DNA of 64,000 nucleotides from Acidimicrobiales bacterium. GTDB taxonomy: Bacteria > Actinomycetota > Acidimicrobiia > Acidimicrobiales > SZUA-35. The stretch lies in the NCBI GenBank assembly GCA_024638815.1, contig JAHEJM010000010.1, positions 939-64,938 on the forward strand, written 5' to 3'. The position numbers and the translations under genes were made by a program. Below the pieces are notes generated by a model. It saw only the letters and a program-made list of their open reading frames with translations, was not told the origin of the DNA and did no database searches. Below, one piece after another: positions 39,309-63,107 of the stretch (positions are counted from its first letter, which is position 1; every line of letters begins with the position of its first letter).

Positions 39309-39400
39309 GGCAACTCTCCGAGTTGCTCCGAGTTTGGCCTCCGGCCAAACATCGCCATAACTTGATTGGATCGTGAACATCCACGCCGCCAAGCCACACT
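39309..39400 (+). repeat. About 92-nt two-hairpin element, copy 1 (upstream of the acyl-CoA ligase)
   Basis: It aligns without gaps to 45732-45823 at roughly 70% identity by eye. It contains the hairpins GCAACTC-TCC-GAGTTGC and GTTTGGCC-TCC-GGCCAAAC, followed by GTGAACA. Confidence 0.7.
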
Positions 39401-39456
39401 ACGGTTGGGAGACCGAATCCAGAGCAGGTCGGCGGTCAGATCGAGAGGCGTTACCC

Positions 39457-41250
39457 ATGACAGAATCGGCAAGTATCGAAGCCACGGTTGCAGGCGAAAC
39501 CATCCCCACAATGATCCTGAAAACGGTGGCCGCCCACGGGGATCTGGTCGCCCTGCGGCACAAGGGCGACGACGGTGCCTGGCATGACACCACGTACACC
39601 ACCTACGCCGACCAGGTGGCTCGGGTCGCCGCCGGACTGGCTGCCCACGGCCTGGGACCGGGCGACCGTCTGGTCATGATGATCCGCAACCGGCCCGAAT
39701 TCCACGTGCTCGATGCCGCCGCCCTCTTTCTGGGCGCGACCCCGGTCTCCATCTACAACTCGTCTTCGCCCGACCAGATCGAGTATCTGGCCAACGACGC
39801 CTCGGCCAAGCTGGCGGTGGTGGAGGATGCCGGATTCCATCAATCGTTCTCCAAGGCTCGGCCGTCCATCGCCAGCCTGGAAAAAGTGGGCGTCATCTCC
39901 GACGGGGTCGATGCCGACTTCACCTATGCCGACCTGCTGGCCCACGACGCCATCGACCTGGACGAGGCGGCCCGGACGGCGAGCACCGATGATCTGGCCA
40001 CCCTCATCTACACCTCGGGCACCACCGGCCCATCCAAGGGGGTCATGCTCGACCACGCCAACATCTGCTGGACGGTCGAGTGCCTCCGGCGGTCCTTCGC
40101 CCTGGACGAGTTCGCCGGCAAGCGTGTGGTCAGCTACCTGCCCATGGCCCACATCGCCGAGCGCATGGTCAGCCACTACTCGATGATGTTCCTGGGCTAT
40201 GAGGTGAGCTGTTGTCCCGATCCGACGCAGTTCGCGGCCTATGCCGGCGAAGTGAGACCCAACATCATGTTCGGTGTGCCTCGGGTGTGGGAAAAGATCT
40301 ACTCCGGTATCCATGCCGCCCTGGCCGCCGACCCGGAGAAGGCCCAGAAGGTGGCCGAGGCGGTGGAGGCGGCGGCCCCTATCAAGGAAAAGATGACCTG
40401 GGGCACGGCAACCCCTGATGAGATCGAGACCTACGAGTTCCTGGACGCCGTTGCCTTCTCCACCATCAGAGGTCTGGTCGGTCTCGATCAGCTGGAGTCC
40501 GCCGTCACCGGCGCCGCCCCTATTCCGGCCGAGATGTTGAGCTGGTTCCGCACCATCGGTGTGCCCCTGTCCGAGATCTACGGCCTGTCCGAGACCTCGG
40601 GCCCGATGACCTGGGCTGCGTACAAGGTGAAGCCGGGCTACGTCGGTCCGGCCTGTCCCGGCGTGGAGGTCAAGCTCGACAGCGACGGCGAGGTCATGTG
40701 CCGGGGCGGCAACGTGTTCCGGGGCTACCTGAACCAGCCGGAGAAGACGGCCGAGGTGCTCGACGACGAGGGCTGGTTCCGCTCCGGCGACATCGGTGAG
40801 TTCGATGAGGACGGCTACCTCAAGATCGTCGACCGCAAGAAGGAGCTGATCATCACCGCCGGGGGGAAGAACCTGTCGCCCTCGAACCTCGAGGCTGCCC
40901 TCAAGATGATCCCGCTGGTGGGACAGGCCGTGGCCATCGGTGATCAGCGCCCGTTCGTATCGGCTCTGATCTGCCTCGACCCCGACGCCGCCGGCACCTG
41001 GGCCGCGGCCCACGGTCTGGAGGGGGCCGACCTCCACGAACTGGCCGACAACCCCGAGGTGATCGCTGAAATCGAAGCCGCCCTACCGGCGGCCATGGAG
41101 GGCTTCAGCAACGCCGAGCGAGTCAAGAAGGTCAAGATCCTGGGCGACGAATGGCTGCCCGACACCGACCTGCTGACCCCAACCTCCAAGCTCAAGCGCC
41201 GGGGCGTTCACGCCCACTATGGGGCCGAGATCGAGGCGCTGTACGCGTGA
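39457..41250 (+). CDS. Long-chain fatty acid-CoA ligase (AMP-dependent synthetase)
   Basis: AMP-binding motifs IYTSGTTGPSKG, YGLSETS, FRSGDIG and GGKNLSP are those of the FadD/FACL-type subfamily. The start is uncertain: the ATG at 39457 has a GAGAGG RBS, and an in-frame GTG at 39373 is an alternative. Confidence 0.85.
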   Translation: MTESASIEATVAGETIPTMILKTVAAHGDLVALRHKGDDGAWHDTTYTTYADQVARVAAGLAAHGLGPGDRLVMMIRNRPEFHVLDAAALFLGATPVSIYNSSSPDQIEYLANDASAKLAVVEDAGFHQSFSKARPSIASLEKVGVISDGVDADFTYADLLAHDAIDLDEAARTASTDDLATLIYTSGTTGPSKGVMLDHANICWTVECLRRSFALDEFAGKRVVSYLPMAHIAERMVSHYSMMFLGYEVSCCPDPTQFAAYAGEVRPNIMFGVPRVWEKIYSGIHAALAADPEKAQKVAEAVEAAAPIKEKMTWGTATPDEIETYEFLDAVAFSTIRGLVGLDQLESAVTGAAPIPAEMLSWFRTIGVPLSEIYGLSETSGPMTWAAYKVKPGYVGPACPGVEVKLDSDGEVMCRGGNVFRGYLNQPEKTAEVLDDEGWFRSGDIGEFDEDGYLKIVDRKKELIITAGGKNLSPSNLEAALKMIPLVGQAVAIGDQRPFVSALICLDPDAAGTWAAAHGLEGADLHELADNPEVIAEIEAALPAAMEGFSNAERVKKVKILGDEWLPDTDLLTPTSKLKRRGVHAHYGAEIEALYA

Positions 41251-42926
41251 GCGAATCAGCACCGGCCCAAGACCCGTCCCACGGTGGTCGGTTGGCGGCC
41301 AAGGCGCTCAAGGCGGCCGGGGTGGAATGCGTGTTCACCCTGTCCGGAGGCCACGTGATGGGCATCTACGACGGCTGCATCGACGAAGGCATCAAGGTGG
41401 TCGACGTCCGTCACGAACAGGCTGCGGTGCACGCCGCCGATGCCTGGGCCCGGCTCAACCCGGGAACGGTCGGTGTGGCCATTCTCACCGCCGGCCCGGG
41501 GGTCACCGACGGTGTCACCGGGGTGGCCAATGCCTGGCGGGCCAACTCGCCCATCGTGGTCTTCGGCGGCCAAGGTCCGTTCAACAACCTGCGCCGGGGT
41601 TCGCTCCAGGAGATGGACCATGTCTCGGTCATGAAACCGATCACCAAGTGGGCCGATGCCTGCTACCAGACCGAACGCATCGGCGAGTACGTCGAGCTGG
41701 CGGTGCGCAACGCCATGAGCGGGGTGCCGGGACCGTCGTTCCTGGAAATCCCCATGGACGTGCTCCACGGACCGGTCGACCTGGCCGCCGTCGGGGTACC
41801 TCGGTTTCGTGACTACCGGGTGGCGTGGTCGGCGCCGGACGACCGTCTCGCCGAGGTGGCACGGCTGCTGGCCGGGGCCGAGCGCCCCATGCTGATGGCC
41901 GGCACCGCTCTCAAGTGGTCGGAGGGTGGCGATGCCCTGCGGTCTTTCGTCGAGGCCACCGGGATCCCGTGCTACACCAACGGCATGGGTCGGGGCATGC
42001 TGCCCATGAGCCATCCCGGGTTCTACAGCCGCAGCCGCAAGGCAGCTCTGTCCGAGGCCGATCTGGTCATGCTGGCCGGCACCCCGCTCGATTTCCGTAT
42101 GCGGTTCGGGGCTTCAATCGGGCCCGACGCCACCATCATCCAGCTCGATCTGGACGAGACCCTGATCGGCCAGAATCGAGCGGCCGATGTGGGCCTGGTC
42201 GGCAACCTGGGGGCCAACCTCGATGCTGTGCGGGACCGGCTGGCAGCCGACGGCGTCGCCGGCCCGATCGGGGCCAAGGACTGGGCCGCAGGGCTGCGCA
42301 CCATCGAGGACGAGACCGAGGCGGCCCAGGCCTCCCAGCTCAACTCCGACGAGGTCCCCATCGATCCGCTGCGGCTGTGCCGCGAGATCGCCGACTTCGT
42401 GGCCACCAGCGATGACATGATCGTCATCGGCGACGGGGGCGACATCGTGGCCCAGGCGTCCAAGGTGCTGAAGGTACCGGACAGCGGGACCTGGATGGAT
42501 CCGGGACCGCTCGGCACGCTGGGGGTGGGTATGCCGTTCGGTCTGGCGGCCCAGATCACGCACCCCGATCGGCGGGTTCTGATCGTCTACGGTGACGGCT
42601 CGTTCGGCCTCAACGGCTTCGAGTTCGACACCGCAGCTCGGTTCGGGTTGCCGGTGGTCGGCATCATCGGCAACGACGGCGCCTGGGGCCAGATGATGCG
42701 GCCCCAGGCAATGCTGTACGGTTCCGAGCGGCTGGTGGCCACCGAGTTGAGCTACACCCGCTACGACCAGGTGGTGGAGGCCCTGGGTGGCCACGGCGAG
42801 CACGTGACCAAACCGGACGAGATCGGCCCGGCCCTGGAGCGGGCCTTCGCCTCGGGCAAGCCGGCCGTGGTCAATGTGGAGATGCGTAAGGACGTCGACG
42901 GCATCAAGGGTTCGACCTACGTGTAG
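41247..42926 (+). CDS. Thiamine diphosphate-dependent enzyme (acetolactate synthase / oxalyl-CoA decarboxylase / 2-hydroxyacyl-CoA lyase superfamily)
   Basis: The N-terminal Pyr domain reads VRHEQAAVHAADAWARL...TAGPGVTDGVTGVANA. The ThDP-binding motif is GDGSFGLNGFEFDTAARFGLPVVGIIGNDGAWG. The GTG start overlaps the ligase stop (GTGA at 41247-41250). Confidence 0.85.
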   Translation: MSESAPAQDPSHGGRLAAKALKAAGVECVFTLSGGHVMGIYDGCIDEGIKVVDVRHEQAAVHAADAWARLNPGTVGVAILTAGPGVTDGVTGVANAWRANSPIVVFGGQGPFNNLRRGSLQEMDHVSVMKPITKWADACYQTERIGEYVELAVRNAMSGVPGPSFLEIPMDVLHGPVDLAAVGVPRFRDYRVAWSAPDDRLAEVARLLAGAERPMLMAGTALKWSEGGDALRSFVEATGIPCYTNGMGRGMLPMSHPGFYSRSRKAALSEADLVMLAGTPLDFRMRFGASIGPDATIIQLDLDETLIGQNRAADVGLVGNLGANLDAVRDRLAADGVAGPIGAKDWAAGLRTIEDETEAAQASQLNSDEVPIDPLRLCREIADFVATSDDMIVIGDGGDIVAQASKVLKVPDSGTWMDPGPLGTLGVGMPFGLAAQITHPDRRVLIVYGDGSFGLNGFEFDTAARFGLPVVGIIGNDGAWGQMMRPQAMLYGSERLVATELSYTRYDQVVEALGGHGEHVTKPDEIGPALERAFASGKPAVVNVEMRKDVDGIKGSTYV

Positions 42927-42957: not shown

Positions 42958-43614
42958 TCAGCCGACCAGCTCGAAACCTCGCAGCAACATGGCCCGGAAC
43001 TCCGGTAGTCGGGCAGCGCCGGCCATGACCGACACGTACCCGGTGGCAAAGTCATCGGGTTCCACCCGGCCTTCGAGCAACTGCAGCAACGACGTGTATC
43101 CGACAGCCAACTCGATGTCGGGGTCGCCGGCACCGAAGGTGTCGCCGTAGTCAACGGCAACCGAGTCATCCGACGTGCGGATCGAGAATGGTTGATCGTC
43201 CACCGTCATCCGCACCGACAGGCTGGGCCGATCGTTCACGGCCTCCAGGGCCACACGGAGCGGCAGTACCACCGAGCGGAGGTTGCCGGGCGATCGTGGC
43301 TCGGGTTCGGGATCCAGCAGCAGGCCGAATCGGGCCAATTCCCACAGGATTCGGTCGGTGCGCCGGCCGATTGCGGTCAGTGTGTAGTGGGTCCGCCCAT
43401 CGACCATGGCTTTGGTCACCAGGCTGTTGTCGACCAGGTCGACGAGGCGTGTGGTCAGCAGGTTGGTGGCGATCCCCAGGCCGGTCTCCAACTCACCGAA
43501 GCGGGCTGGTCCGGCGTGCAGATCGCGCAGGATCAGCAACGACCACCGGTCTCCCAACGCATCCAGGGATCGGGCGATGGGGCAGAGCAAGAGGTAGCGA
43601 CGCTTGGGCGACAT
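42958..43614 (-). CDS. HxlR-family transcriptional regulator with C-terminal SCP2-like extension
   Basis: CPIARSLDALGDRWSLLILRDLHAGPARFGELETGLGIATNLLTTRLVDL is a typical HxlR winged helix. An additional C-terminal domain of about 120 aa follows. Confidence 0.8.
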   Translation of the reverse strand: MSPKRRYLLLCPIARSLDALGDRWSLLILRDLHAGPARFGELETGLGIATNLLTTRLVDLVDNSLVTKAMVDGRTHYTLTAIGRRTDRILWELARFGLLLDPEPEPRSPGNLRSVVLPLRVALEAVNDRPSLSVRMTVDDQPFSIRTSDDSVAVDYGDTFGAGDPDIELAVGYTSLLQLLEGRVEPDDFATGYVSVMAGAARLPEFRAMLLRGFELVG

Positions 43615-43641
43615 GAGATTCAGTTTACGGGCAAGCGCGAG

Positions 43642-43710
43642 ACTTGCTTGCAAAAAGCAAGTGAGCCGTGTTATCGTGAACGACACCCAGTTTCACTTGC
43701 AAATTGCAAG
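43642..43710. promoter_or_regulatory. Two CTTGC/GCAAG-arm palindromes (candidate operators) in a divergent promoter region
   Basis: ACTTGCT-TGCAAAA-AGCAAGT lies at 43642-43662. CTTGCAA-A-TTGCAAG lies at 43696-43710. Both sit between the HxlR gene and the carbonic anhydrase gene. Confidence 0.5.
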
Positions 43711-43751: not shown

Positions 43752-44276
43752 ATGACAAACCTCACCCCTTTCCTCGACCGCAACCAGGCCTATGCCGACG
43801 GCGGCGCCTACAAAGGCCTAACCCCCATGCCGAAGCACCAGGTGTTCGTCATCACCTGCATGGACGGCAGGGTTGATCCGGCCCATTTCCTTGGGGTGGG
43901 ACCGGGTGAGGCGCTCGTCTACCGGAACGCCGGAGGTCGGGTTACCGACGAGGCGGTGCGTGAAGTCGCCTTCATCGGAGCCGTCACCGAGATGATGCTC
44001 GGTGATGAGGCCCCCATCTTCGAGGTCGCCGTCATCCACCACACCAACTGCGGTACGGCGTTCCTGGCCGACGAGAACTTCAACCGGGTCTTCTCGGCCA
44101 CGACGGGAGTCGCAGGGGATGAGCTCGAGGCCGAGGCCGTGGTCGATCCCCACCAGACGGTAAAGGCCGACGTGGACACGCTGCGGTCCTCGGCCCTACT
44201 ACCGGCCCACGCCGTGGTCTCGGGTCATGTCTACGACGTGCACACGGGAGTGGTGGAGACGGTGGTCCCGGTCTGA
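43752..44276 (+). CDS. Beta-class carbonic anhydrase-like protein
   Basis: The zinc ligand motifs VITCMDGRVDP (C-x-D-x-R) and HHTNCG (H-x-x-C) are present. Confidence 0.8.
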   Translation: MTNLTPFLDRNQAYADGGAYKGLTPMPKHQVFVITCMDGRVDPAHFLGVGPGEALVYRNAGGRVTDEAVREVAFIGAVTEMMLGDEAPIFEVAVIHHTNCGTAFLADENFNRVFSATTGVAGDELEAEAVVDPHQTVKADVDTLRSSALLPAHAVVSGHVYDVHTGVVETVVPV

Positions 44277-44396
44277 TCGGTCGGCCGCCGGCGTTGGCGT
44301 CGCCCCCGATGCAGATGGTCCATCCGATGCCTGGAGACGGATCAAGGCCGGACCGGGATGCAGGCCGGGGTGGCGAACTAGGTCTATGGTCAAACC

Positions 44397-44876
44397 ATGG
44401 CTGCGTTTCATGACCTGACCATGGAATCGATCACGGGGGAGCATGTGCCGTTCTCCCGCTACGAGGGCCACGCCGTCCTGGTGGTCAATGTCGCCAGCAA
44501 GTGAGGGTTGACCCCTCAGTACGCAGGTCTGCGTACCTTGCATCACGACATCGACAGGCTCACGGTGCTGGCGTTTCCCTGTAACCAGTTCGGGAATCAG
44601 GAGCCGGGCAGCAATGCCGAGATCCTGGAGTTCGCCCGGTCGACGTACGACGTGAACTTCCCCATGTTCGCCAAGATCGAGGTCAATGGCGGGAACGAGG
44701 CCCCGCTCTACACCCTGCTCAAGGCGGCACAGCCCGGCAACGGCACGTCGTCCGACATCAACTGGAATTTCGAGAAGTTCCTGGTGTCGCCTCATGGGGA
44801 GGTGCTGGCCCGATTCCCGCCCCAAACCACCCCGGAGGAGGTCGGCCGGCGGCTGGGGGATTACGTGGATCTGTAG
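44397..44876 (+). CDS. Glutathione peroxidase with in-frame TGA at the catalytic position (candidate selenocysteine, codon 44502-44504)
   Basis: Reading from the ATG at 44397 gives MAAFHDLTMESITGEHVPFSRYEGHAVLVVNVASK-TGA-GLTPQYAGL...FPCNQFGNQEPG...WNFEKFLV. The TGA aligns with the Cys/Sec of the GPx motif NVAS-x-[CU]-G-x-T. The ORF track reports only the downstream 122 aa. Confidence 0.7.
44519..44536 (+). promoter_or_regulatory. SECIS-like hairpin (7-bp stem, GGTC loop) 15 nt 3' of the TGA
   Basis: GTACGCA-GGTC-TGCGTAC. The core GCAGGTCTGC equals the apical part of the E. coli fdhF SECIS as I recall it. Confidence 0.5.
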
Positions 44877-44916: not shown

Positions 44917-45627
44917 TCAGACTAGGCCGAGCAGGATGTCGGCCAACACCTCGGGGTGGCTGAACGGGATCATGTGGCCCGCCTCGATCTCGTGGTAGGT
45001 CCACCGATCATCGGCCTCGGCCCGTCGGGCGGCCTGCCGGAATGCCGAGTCGGGGCCCTCGCCGGGGTCGGCCGTGGCCTTGATGAAGGTGAGGGTGAAC
45101 GGCCACTGCTCCAGCGGCATCGACAGGGACACCGCCTGGGTCATCGTGCGGATGGGCTGGGGGGTCCGGCGGGCGTCGGACCAGGCCGTCTCCTGCGGGG
45201 TGTCCAGTCGGCGGGGGAGCGGGACGATCTGCCACTCCGGCGGGGGCAGTGAGGCCGGCCCGGGCTCGGGTCGAGGCCCTCCGAACAGCTCCATGGCGGT
45301 CTGGCCGTTCACCGGGACGAAGGCGTCGAGGTAGACCAGGTGACCGACCCGCTCGCCGATATGGTCCAGGGCGCCGGTCACCACCATGCCGCCGTAGGAG
45401 AAGCCGAGCAGCACGACGTCGGTCAGGTCCTCGTAGAGGATGACGTTGACCAGATCCTGGATGTGGGTGGAAAGGTCGACCATGGGCCCGGCCAGATGGG
45501 ATCGCTCGCCGATCCCGGTCAGGCTGGGAGTGAACACCTCGTGGCCGGCCCCCCACAACAGGGGCCGGACCTTCCCGAACCCGTACGAACCACCCCACGC
45601 CCCATGACACAACACGAACGTCGACAT
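44917..45627 (-). CDS. Alpha/beta hydrolase (esterase-like)
   Basis: FVLCHGAWGG oxyanion region. GFSYGG nucleophile elbow. C-terminal EAGHM His. Confidence 0.8.
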   Translation of the reverse strand: MSTFVLCHGAWGGSYGFGKVRPLLWGAGHEVFTPSLTGIGERSHLAGPMVDLSTHIQDLVNVILYEDLTDVVLLGFSYGGMVVTGALDHIGERVGHLVYLDAFVPVNGQTAMELFGGPRPEPGPASLPPPEWQIVPLPRRLDTPQETAWSDARRTPQPIRTMTQAVSLSMPLEQWPFTLTFIKATADPGEGPDSAFRQAARRAEADDRWTYHEIEAGHMIPFSHPEVLADILLGLV

Positions 45628-47934: not shown

Positions 47935-48038
47935 GAGGTAGACGCTACCGGAAACAGTCGCCGGCCCCGGAATCCATGAGGGCCATCGGCGGACACCGGC
48001 GCTAGGGTGCCTGAGGAGTGCCTGCGAGATTGGAGCCT

Positions 48039-49112
48039 ATGAGCAACGAACTCACCTGGTATGAGATCCCCGAGCTTCGGCGACCACTCCTGTTGATCGG
48101 TTTTGAGGGTTTGTTCGATGCGGCCGAGGCCGCCACGTCGGCCCTGCGCTGGGTGCGGGATCGGACGGAGTCGACCGAGGTGGCCATGGTCGACCCGGAA
48201 GGCTACTACAACTTCCAGGAGTCCCGACCCACGGTCCGCATCGATGATGACGGCGGACGGGTGATCGACTGGCCGGTGATCGAGATCCATGCCGTCAATA
48301 CCGACTCGGTTCGGGACCTGATGATCATGACCGGGGCTGAACCCCACTTGCGATGGCGGACCTTTGCCGACCAGGTGACCGAGGTGGCTCGACGGACGGG
48401 ATGCGAGATGGTGGTGACCGTCGGGGCGTTTGTCGGTATGGTGCCTCATACCCGCCCGTTCTCGGTGACGGGTTCGGCCGTCCACCCCGAGCTCATCCGC
48501 CGCCTCAACCTGTCGACGCCGTCCTATGAGGGGCCGACCAGCCTGGTCGGGGTCATCAATGAGCGTCTGGAGCGGGCCAACATCCCTGTGATCTCACTCC
48601 GGGTCGAGGTGCCCCACTATGTGCCCGGTCCACCGAACCCCAAGGCCACCCGGGCCCTGTTGCGCCGACTGCAGCAAACCACCGGGGTCGTCACCGGCTA
48701 CGAGGAACTGGACGCCGAAGTGACCGACTGGACCAGCCGGGTGGACCAGGCGGTGCTGGCCGATGACGAGAGCCGGGACTATGTGGCCCGGCTTGAGCAG
48801 CAGGCCGATTCGACCGAGGCCATGCTCCCCTCCGGTGACGATCTGGCCGGTGAGCTCGAAGCCTTCCTGCGGGATCAGGCCGCCGCCAAGCAGGCCGTGC
48901 TCGACGCCGTGAGCCGGGCCGATGACGCCGATGATGGCGACGATATCGACGGCACGGACGACGACACCGAAGCTACCGAGGACGACACCGTCGATTCCGA
49001 GGGCGAGACCGTCGATACCAAGGACGAGACCGACCAGGGCCGGCAGTGGGATAACGGTCGGGAGCGGGACGATCCAGACGATCCAAGCCAAGATCCGGGC
49101 GAAGAGGAATAG
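48039..49112 (+). CDS. PAC2 (proteasome assembly chaperone-like) family protein with acidic C-terminal tail
   Basis: LRRPLLLIGFEGLFDAAEAATSAL and VEVPHYVPGPPNPKAT are typical of actinobacterial PAC2 proteins. The C-terminus is strongly Asp/Glu-rich. Confidence 0.7.
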   Translation: MSNELTWYEIPELRRPLLLIGFEGLFDAAEAATSALRWVRDRTESTEVAMVDPEGYYNFQESRPTVRIDDDGGRVIDWPVIEIHAVNTDSVRDLMIMTGAEPHLRWRTFADQVTEVARRTGCEMVVTVGAFVGMVPHTRPFSVTGSAVHPELIRRLNLSTPSYEGPTSLVGVINERLERANIPVISLRVEVPHYVPGPPNPKATRALLRRLQQTTGVVTGYEELDAEVTDWTSRVDQAVLADDESRDYVARLEQQADSTEAMLPSGDDLAGELEAFLRDQAAAKQAVLDAVSRADDADDGDDIDGTDDDTEATEDDTVDSEGETVDTKDETDQGRQWDNGRERDDPDDPSQDPGEEE

Positions 49113-62003: not shown

Positions 62004-63107
62004 TCAACGCTCGATGGCGACAAGTCCCCAGTCGTAGCTCGACAATGCGCCCCACGGTGCCACGACGACATCGGTGCCCAGGCGTTGTGCCAGGTTCACC
62101 GCGGCATCGGTCACCGGAGCGGTGATCGGGTTCACCTGCTCGAGCTTCTGCCACTTCTCGACGAAGGCGGGAATGGAGAAGTCGAACTTGGCGGTCTGTC
62201 GGTCCGGTCGGGAATGGTCGTTTCCCACGACCAGTTTGGAGGCCAGACCTCGGGTCACCATGTCCAACGCCTCGGGCCCGGTCTTGGCCGTTCCCACGCC
62301 CACTGCTTCCCGAACCACACCGAGTTCGTCGACCATCTGTTCGGCCGCCCGGTTGCGAAGGGCGAGGTCGGCATGGTCGAGAAAGGCATCGACCCCTGGT
62401 GCCGGCCGTTCGGCCCTCGACCCCTCGACCTCGAGAACCGTATACCGGCTGGGCAGGTGCTCGATGAAGAAGCCGACGGCCCGGACGTCACCACCCACGA
62501 CCACCAGCGCGTTTCCCGGGTTCAACTCGGCCAGCCGGTCGACGACCTCCCTGGCATTCTTCTCCCACGTGTTCTCCGCCGTCTGCTGGAACCGCCGTTG
62601 CGACCATCCGCCGGGGTGGCCTCGGTGAATATGGACCTCGTTGCCCTCGACCTCGTCCACGGCCAGTGGCGAACCGAGATCGTTCCGGGCGAAGAGATCA
62701 CCTCCGGTGCGATCGAGCAGCACGGCGACATGGCTGAGGTCGACCTGCGTCGCCTCCAGGATGGGCAGCAAGGCGGGGACCGGGCCGACGGTCACACTCG
62801 TACGACTGAGAGCGCGGATCATGGAGTGATCGACCAGCACCGAGGCATCGCCGTCGGTGTCCACAGCCACGATCAGTCGGGCCGTTGCGTCGGCGTGGTC
62901 GGCCTCAGCCAAGGCGTCGCCCACGACCGACACAGTGGGCGACCCGGCCTTGAGATGTTCGAGTTCAGCCGCGACATTTCTGCATCGGATTTCGTACCGA
63001 CGCTCGGCGTCGGCCGCCGTGGACGGGGTGGGTACGTAGACGGTGGTGAACGTGCCCACGTGATCGCCGATGGCGTTGCGGACCGCGGTGCTGGTGTCGT
63101 GCTGCAT
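62004..63107 (-). CDS. eRF1-like / Vms1-Ankzf1-like (bacterial baeRF-type) protein
   Basis: The central segment IHRGHPGGWSQRRFQQTAEN parallels the eRF1 catalytic loop HGRGGQSALRFARLREE. GGW-SQ stands in place of GGQS. The 367-aa size and three-part layout fit the eRF1 fold. Confidence 0.6.
   Translation of the reverse strand: MQHDTSTAVRNAIGDHVGTFTTVYVPTPSTAADAERRYEIRCRNVAAELEHLKAGSPTVSVVGDALAEADHADATARLIVAVDTDGDASVLVDHSMIRALSRTSVTVGPVPALLPILEATQVDLSHVAVLLDRTGGDLFARNDLGSPLAVDEVEGNEVHIHRGHPGGWSQRRFQQTAENTWEKNAREVVDRLAELNPGNALVVVGGDVRAVGFFIEHLPSRYTVLEVEGSRAERPAPGVDAFLDHADLALRNRAAEQMVDELGVVREAVGVGTAKTGPEALDMVTRGLASKLVVGNDHSRPDRQTAKFDFSIPAFVEKWQKLEQVNPITAPVTDAAVNLAQRLGTDVVVAPWGALSSYDWGLVAIER

Follow-up and report, generated by a model that had tools for sequence, protein, structure and literature searches.

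Within a 64,000-nucleotide stretch of Acidimicrobiales DNA (contig JAHEJM010000010.1; hereafter the window), a glutathione peroxidase (GPx) gene on the forward strand carries an in-frame TGA at the codon for its catalytic residue, raising the question of whether this codon is read as selenocysteine (Sec) or marks a gene that has been broken. Our analyses support a reading in which positions 44397-44876 encode one GPx of 159 residues whose peroxidatic residue is a Sec specified by the UGA at 44502-44504, and we hold this reading to be about 90% probable. The comparison with relatives on which it rests concerns both the protein, which is conserved on either side of the TGA, and a hairpin just downstream, which resembles the Sec insertion sequence (SECIS) of bacteria.

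The gene comprises 159 codons and a TAG stop (44874-44876), with a single in-frame TGA between them. An in-frame TAG at 44379-44381 makes the ATG at 44397 the earliest possible in-frame start, and a mechanical list of open reading frames (ORFs) contains only the part after the TGA (44508-44876, 122 aa, with a TTG start); all of these coordinates are as given in the original prediction, which was made from the letters of the window and had described a complete frame of which the ORF track showed a fragment. When Cys is placed at the TGA, the frame matches the whole of the Pfam domain GSHPx (PF00255; 131.4 bits against a cut-off of 27, E = 1.2e-38), with residues 4-109 covering profile positions 1-108 of 108, and its N-terminus (MAAFHDLTMESITGE...) aligns with the N-termini of full-length relatives. 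The NCBIfam scores stay under the equivalog cut-offs (159 vs 270). The catalytic residues, which from GPx4 numbering we take to form the tetrad of Sec/Cys, Gln, Trp and Asn, are U36 in NVASKUGLT, Q68 in FGNQEPG (GNQEP) and W123/N124 in WNF. Alignment to 154 distinct Cys-type homologues places the TGA on their peroxidatic Cys codon (TGC or TGT; NVASK-[U/C]-GLT), bearing out the earlier assignment of this position, and 16 other distinct genes have a TGA there, making 17 with the window. TGA is also the commonest ordinary stop of the window, ending 19 of its 37 confident genes, and a reassigned genetic code was rejected on this count. A scan of the window for TGAs that lie in frame and have coding-type composition on either side returned, apart from gene-gene boundaries, only the GPx TGA, and no other selenoprotein gene was found.

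Because the relatives were collected by protein similarity and not by hairpin, they can be asked whether hairpin and TGA go together. Of the 80 best genomic loci, taken from a single genome for each species, the closest six without exception carry TGA as catalytic codon with CAGTACGCAGGTCTGCG behind it; these come from two metagenome-assembled genomes (MAGs) of Acidimicrobiales (65-69% identity) and four of Gammaproteobacteria/Pseudomonadales (52-60%), and the rest have TGC or TGT and no hairpin. On metagenome contigs, the eight closest genes all combine TGA and hairpin, and 73 Cys-type genes at other loci have neither. Overall, the hairpin is present in all 17 distinct TGA genes, window included (one with a single mismatch), whose sources are Acidimicrobiales and Gammaproteobacteria MAGs plus metagenomes, and in none of the 148 ordinary Cys-type genes; it is intact in 1 of 154 distinct Cys-type genes overall. 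An alignment of orthologues had been proposed to see whether TGA and TGC alternate along with the hairpin: they do alternate, and the hairpin tracks the TGA. The homologous frames are intact on both sides of the TGA in all 17 genes. One of the 17 lies on the 10.4-kb contig L162, which follows the gene order of the window from 44.4 to 55.4 kb, is 94% identical in the C-terminal part of the GPx and keeps the TGA and an identical hairpin, while the codon ahead of the TGA has changed synonymously from AAG to AAA; the further disabling mutations in close relatives that a decaying gene was expected to show are not seen.

This recurrence bears directly on the possibility of a sequencing or assembly error in which the true codon is TGC or TGT. 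Both lie one base from TGA, and a metagenomic relative has CGA at the catalytic codon, possibly itself an error; nevertheless, the same TGA recurs in L162, a syntenic contig of independent origin, and in another 15 independent assemblies, and at least six members of a 90% cluster, two NCBI MAG contigs among them, are truncated alike, so that we give such an error a negligible chance. Nor can the TGA genes be artefacts of one sequence, since their flanks diverge and they differ at synonymous sites.

In a neighbour-joining tree, the Sec-GPx clade mixes MAGs of Acidimicrobiales and Gammaproteobacteria, and the ordinary Cys-GPx of the same phyla lie elsewhere. It is a distinct clade, common to Acidimicrobiales and marine or soil Gammaproteobacteria, and its mixed-phylum composition suggests horizontal transfer of the gene together with the SECIS in its ORF.

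The hairpin is constrained as RNA and not as protein. Its codons at positions +5 to +10 after the TGA (CAG TAC GCA GGT CTG CGT) are frozen: in the 17 TGA genes only 1 of 102 is a non-consensus synonymous codon, compared with 71 of 164 flanking codons in the same genes (Fisher p about 3e-17), 13 of 36 at the same six codons in six Cys-type genes that also encode QYAGLR (p about 5e-8) and 277 of 610 codons for the same amino acids in other Cys-type genes (p about 1e-22), p-values that overstate independence because the sequences are related. Inheritance alone cannot explain the frozen block, since synonymous divergence within the clade is saturated (median dS about 1.2-1.3). The peptide itself is odd, QYAGLR in the Sec clade vs QYxGLE in ordinary Cys-GPx, and this oddity is explained by the stem, whose 3' arm comes from the Arg codon CGU.

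Purifying selection, in addition, acts on both halves of the gene. Between the window and L162, there are six synonymous and one non-synonymous codon changes upstream of the TGA (ratio of non-synonymous to synonymous rates, dN/dS, 0.04) and 13 synonymous and seven non-synonymous changes downstream (dN/dS 0.17); the clade medians are 0.35 and 0.21, respectively. The claim that the rest of the gene shows no decay is thus upheld by dN/dS well below 1 on either side of the TGA. These values, together with the frozen codons, make it very improbable that the locus is a pseudogene in which a TGC-to-TGA nonsense mutation inactivated an ordinary Cys-GPx, with a hairpin that arises from the coding sequence by coincidence. 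Such a pseudogene would accord with the splitting of the gene by ORF callers, the lack of Sec machinery in the DNA examined and the occurrence of QYAGLR in some Cys-type genes, one of them with an intact hairpin, but it does not account for a TGA kept in 17 distinct genes from two phyla at 56-94% protein identity with frames intact on both sides, for selection that extends to the 35 codons upstream of the TGA, or for hairpin codons that are frozen only in TGA genes (1 of 102) and drift in Cys genes with the same peptide (13 of 36). Selection on the same 35 upstream codons argues against a second scheme, in which translation stops at the TGA and restarts at the TTG at 44508 to give a C-terminal GPx fragment that works alone. 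A TTG-start ORF does exist there and gene callers report such fragments; yet the fragment is devoid of the catalytic residue and of the first beta-alpha unit of the thioredoxin fold, and the called starts vary between relatives (103-125 aa), leaving two separate products with next to no probability.

What becomes of the hairpin when the Sec codon is lost can be followed in six distinct Cys-type genes that sit inside the Sec clade and retain QYAGLR. Three of them (L163, L164 and L167; TGC) have lost the hairpin by synonymous changes such as CAA TAC GCC GGC CTA CGC, L166 (TGT) and L169 (TGC) have one mismatch each, and L168 (TGC, on 12 contigs) keeps it intact. Since Cys genes with the same peptide show a graded loss, the hairpin is not merely the DNA that QYAGLR requires. 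The original prediction had stated that TGC orthologues with the same downstream sequence would reduce the hairpin to coding sequence; in general these genes do not bear that out, and L168 alone has the complete hairpin. In the neighbour-joining tree (L001-L006, L082-L089 and L162-L171), the Cys genes are interspersed with the TGA genes, and the simplest reading is that several independent Sec-to-Cys conversions were each followed by relaxed constraint and gradual decay of the SECIS.

The hairpin of the window, GTACGCA-GGTC-TGCGTAC, has the sequence and the position right after the TGA that had been claimed for it. Its stem of 7 bp (GUACGCA/UGCGUAC) carries a GGUC loop, and stem and loop begin 14 nt and 21 nt after the TGA, respectively. 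An RNAalifold consensus of 14 aligned Sec-type genes consists of exactly this 7-bp stem and GGUC loop; 99% of the cells of the apical hairpin are paired across relatives, and the stem varies only by one A/G mismatch and, in three of the 14 sequences, a U.G wobble. As in bacterial SECIS elements, the stem-loop lies within the ORF and its apical loop is small and contains a G (PMC1088965), and its distance from the UGA is within the 16-37 nt found between UGA and apical loop in bacteria (PMC10778597). For a direct comparison with the SECIS of E. coli fdhF, we used a 34-nt stretch that matched fdhF at 100% in 5,419 of 5,426 E. coli genomes; the fdhF sequence is TGA-CACGGCCCATC-GGTTGCAGGTCTGCACC, and it has in common with the window the 10-mer GCAGGTCTGC, made up of the upper stem and the GGUC loop and set in the same codon phase (GCA GGT CTG). 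This 10-mer occurs once in the 64-kb window, against 0.16 occurrences expected by chance.

Beneath the apical hairpin, the minimum free energy (MFE) fold of the window contains a lower hairpin, UGAGGG-UUGAC-CCCUCA, that covers the UGA; 77% of its cells are paired across relatives, no better than in shuffles. The Pro codon at +4 (44514-44516) is CCT in eight of 14 TGA genes vs 16 of 153 Cys genes (p about 1e-4). This bias is a hint for the lower hairpin, because in a small UGAGG...CCUCA hairpin the U of CCT would stand opposite the A of the UGA and pair with it. An outer stem in the MFE fold (GCAAG/CUUGC) was rejected: it is not conserved, and the AAG-to-AAA change breaks it in L162.

Several observations weigh against Sec insertion directed by this hairpin. 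Compensatory covariation is absent and cannot be judged, because the stem is practically invariant; the freezing of synonymous sites was used in its place. Folding of positions 44495-44560, which the original prediction had put forward, did give a structure but beat shuffled sequences only modestly (z = -2.07), a weaker point, and the case for a SECIS is one of comparison with relatives, not of thermodynamics. The 7-bp stem pairs throughout, whereas fdhF (GGUUGCA/UGCACC) has a bulged U, which in E. coli is required in the 5' strand of the mini-helix. The distance from UGA to mini-helix is 14 nt in the window compared with 11 nt in fdhF, 3 nt further, although it is inside the general bacterial range. 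In Rfam, no family exceeds the gathering thresholds for the hairpin region, and at E<=10 the only match is a chance one (E 0.92) to a plastid 3' untranslated region (UTR) family; bacterial SECIS elements are poorly represented in Rfam (Actinomarina preprint, bioRxiv 10.64898/2026.04.03.716425). Two individual genes add to these points. L168 (L168:10103-10160, P0022) is a Cys-type gene of the gammaproteobacterial NLASQ subtype that retains an intact SECIS-like hairpin (GTACGCAGGTCTGCGTGC); it probably converted from Sec to Cys recently, which would make the hairpin a fossil SECIS. L170 (L170:406-460, P0017, ENA ERZ23499074), found on one contig, combines a perfect hairpin with a catalytic CGA (Arg), which is one base from TGA and reflects either an error in sequencing or an allele without catalytic activity. 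Finally, selenium incorporation at the UGA is a prediction from sequence.

The machinery of Sec decoding was likewise not encountered. The tRNAs of the window are tRNA-Ser(CGA) and tRNA-Leu(CAG), with no tRNA-Sec detected by ARAGORN or Rfam; NCBIfam finds no SelA, SelB or SelD among the 30 larger ORFs of the window; no tRNA-Sec lies in the flanks of the Sec-type relatives; and tblastn searches of 1.23 Mb of DNA with E. coli SelA, SelB and SelD returned none of the three, only generic GTPase similarity in L009. Absence of sel genes near the GPx gene is weak evidence, because sel genes rarely adjoin selenoprotein genes, and it is the GPx gene itself that points to a Sec-decoding trait in the host. 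Complete selA/B/C/D sets are reported for all 84 closed genomes of Actinomarina, which belongs to the class Acidimicrobiia (bioRxiv 10.64898/2026.04.03.716425). The description of the host as an actinobacterium agrees with the PP2C-FtsW-PBP-PknB cluster in the window and with the closest named AroC relatives (78-82%), which are Acidimicrobiales or Acidimicrobiia MAGs.

It is on this machinery that an alternative form of decoding turns, in which the gene is functional and the UGA is recoded, but not as Sec or not by the canonical route; SelB might, for example, direct the insertion of Cys from a tRNA that resembles tRNA-Sec, or the hairpin might promote near-cognate read-through in which Trp or Cys is incorporated. 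The machinery was seen nowhere in the window or in the 1.23 Mb examined, and the frequent interchange of Sec and Cys within the clade indicates that Cys is tolerated at the site. We nonetheless regard this alternative as unlikely, given that the apex of the hairpin is identical to the SelB-binding apex of fdhF and is under strong constraint at the RNA level, that the recoded codon specifies the peroxidatic residue, for which GPx has Sec as a known alternative to Cys, that catalysis would not survive a Trp or Arg in this place, and that Sec machinery exists in Actinomarina of the same class. It is similarly improbable that the Acidimicrobiales lineage has no canonical selABCD decoding at all and relies on, for example, SelB-delivered Cys or other hairpin-driven recoding; were this true, the switching between Sec and Cys would reflect a flexible recoding cassette that moves between phyla.

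Returning to Sec as the residue specified by the UGA, we infer the insertion of Sec rather than of another residue, the binding of SelB, the presence of selABCD in the host and the nature of the reductant, and by analogy to fdhF we propose the following mechanism. The hairpin would form in the mRNA during translation with its loop 21 nt past the UGA, and its GGUC loop and GC-rich upper stem would be bound by the C-terminal winged-helix domains of SelB. SelB, carrying Sec-tRNA(Sec), would compete with release factor 2 and bring this tRNA to the UGA when the codon occupies the A site of the ribosome. The resulting enzyme would be a GPx4-like peroxidase with a single redox residue, the full Sec/Gln/Trp/Asn tetrad and no resolving Cys.

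The loss of the resolving Cys is a property of the clade. The corresponding column holds Cys in all 104 ordinary Cys-GPx relatives ('...FC...'); the 17 TGA genes and the nested Cys genes all have Ala or Val instead, which in the window is Ala80 (44634-44636). In an alignment with yeast Hyr1/Gpx3 (PDB 3cmi), which has Cys in this column, 'efa' of the window stands against 'qfc'. Several Cys-type members of the clade (P0003/L164, P0004, P0012, P0016 and P0019) have another Cys three residues earlier ('EICEF'), and this Cys may be a resolving Cys newly acquired after Sec was lost. As there is no internal resolving Cys, recycling would presumably depend on an external thiol or thioredoxin: after reduction of a hydroperoxide, the selenenic acid would probably be regenerated in this way and not through an internal disulfide, with thioredoxin or the external thiol acting directly on the oxidised selenium. 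In an actinobacterium, mycothiol or thioredoxin is a more likely reductant than glutathione.

The features of the locus are collected in Table 1. The genes around the GPx are a divergent HxlR/MarR-type regulator (42958-43686), a beta-carbonic-anhydrase-like ORF (43752-44276) and an alpha/beta hydrolase (44917-45627), and they offer no operon-level clue to function. Elsewhere in the window, the listed ORFs for a FadD11-like acyl-CoA ligase (39373-41250) and an acetolactate-synthase-like protein (41151-42926), both on the forward strand, overlap by 100 nt; the profile match of the latter starts only at residue 39-45, so that its true start is probably further downstream and the overlap is probably an over-extension of the ORF and not real. 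Two further genes, typical of actinobacteria and unrelated to the GPx, encode a homologue of the Rv2629-family ribosome hibernation factor (62004-63107, reverse strand) and a PAC2-family (proteasome assembly chaperone-like) protein (48018-49112, forward strand).

Table 1 Features assigned at the GPx locus (window positions) and the evidence for each
Feature	Position	Strand	Evidence
Complete coding sequence of the predicted Sec-type GPx	44397..44876	+	Frame, Pfam GSHPx, homology of the N-terminus, selection on both sides of the TGA
UGA predicted to be read as Sec (U36), motif NVASK-U-GLT (UxxT)	44502..44504	+	Alignment with Cys-type and TGA relatives
Predicted bacterial SECIS apical hairpin, GGUC loop at 44526-44529, within codons Q-Y-A-G-L-R-T	44519..44536	+	Consensus fold, synonymous freeze, fdhF apex
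Possible lower hairpin UGAGGG-UUGAC-CCCUCA, pairing the UGA itself (tentative)	44502..44518	+	MFE fold

The Sec-GPx clade is poorly served by present annotation. Many 'full-length' GPx proteins of the clade in databases (P0005-P0007, P0009, P0010, P0023, P0024, P0026, P0033, P0034 and P0039) carry W at the catalytic position, and other entries are truncated to 103-125 aa. The gene behind one W-annotated protein, L171 (P0005; L171:406), has a TGA followed by a perfect hairpin, and its W arises because the TGA was translated with a code that reads it as Trp. The Trp-containing and truncated entries are systematic annotation artefacts of the clade and are widespread in public databases. The practical result of our analysis is accordingly a correction of annotation, since callers give either a catalytically meaningless fragment or, under genetic code 4, a Trp. 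Sec at the catalytic site would imply that an uncultured high-GC lineage of Acidimicrobiales uses Sec in its defence against peroxide. Beyond this host, the clade provides a natural comparison set for the study of how selenoproteins are gained and lost, with TGA genes in which the hairpin is frozen, Cys revertants whose hairpins have decayed to different degrees and a possible new resolving Cys; and since fdhF has an identical SECIS apex, E. coli is a suitable host for tests of read-through. These findings leave the present picture of Sec decoding as it was and would not surprise a specialist. What may be new are the Acidimicrobiales host, the occurrence in two phyla of an apex identical to that of fdhF, the loss of the resolving Cys throughout the clade and the Sec-to-Cys series with its decaying hairpins; a limited literature search returned no published Sec-GPx from Acidimicrobiales.

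Among known systems, the E. coli fdhF SECIS (mini-helix GGUUGCAGGUCUGCACC) offers the closest likeness at the RNA level. Both have the 10-nt apex GCAGGUCUGC, GGUC loop included, in the same reading phase (GCA GGU CUG, Ala-Gly-Leu), the hairpin lies in the ORF just 3' of the UGA, and the window has the apical GGUC loop on a G-C-rich upper stem that constitutes the SelB contact in SECIS elements of the fdhF type. The apex identity and similar spacing that the original prediction had claimed are therefore confirmed, with the loop 21 nt from the UGA in the window and 18 nt in fdhF, one codon more. In place of the extended lower stem of fdhF, the window has at most a separate, weak hairpin that spans the UGA, and the protein is a peroxidase here and a formate dehydrogenase there.

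At the protein level, two kinds of GPx invite comparison. With the 2-Cys GPx of yeast and bacteria (Hyr1/Gpx3, 3cmi; PRK10606), it shares fold and motifs, 3cmi being the best match among solved structures (E 8.7e-41); however, those enzymes pair a peroxidatic Cys with a resolving Cys ('QFC'), whereas the Sec clade has Ala or Val in the resolving column. Mammalian GPx4, the phospholipid hydroperoxide GPx, a monomeric Sec enzyme whose solved chains match at E about 1e-32, has a peroxidatic Sec and the FPCNQFGxQEPG and WNF motifs in common with it and, similarly, has Ala in the column of the resolving Cys of 2-Cys GPx. In GPx4, however, the SECIS is located in the 3' UTR and is read by SBP2/eEFSec, while here it lies in the ORF and would presumably be read by SelB.

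The closest counterpart as a whole is the bacterial Sec-GPx, an established and computationally defined selenoprotein family catalogued since 2004-2008. It was first noted in Treponema denticola (PMC1794560), is listed with the UxxT motif (PMC13188914) and is recognised as a bacterial family (PMC1088965; PMC2398784). In the Global Ocean Sampling (GOS) data, 40 Sec sequences of GPx stand against 3,287 Cys sequences (PMC2398784), in agreement with the earlier statement that Sec-GPx is uncommon in bacteria. The window gene resembles the known members (PF00255; T. denticola WP_010957027.1 and Sargasso Sea/GOS sequences) in family, in the UxxT motif with its predicted peroxidatic Sec, in a bacterial-type SECIS in the ORF just past the UGA and in being rare relative to Cys homologues, and it differs in its Acidimicrobiales host, T. 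denticola and AACY01190440 being set beside it by description and not by sequence. In every feature open to test, the window gene is that of a bacterial Sec-GPx.

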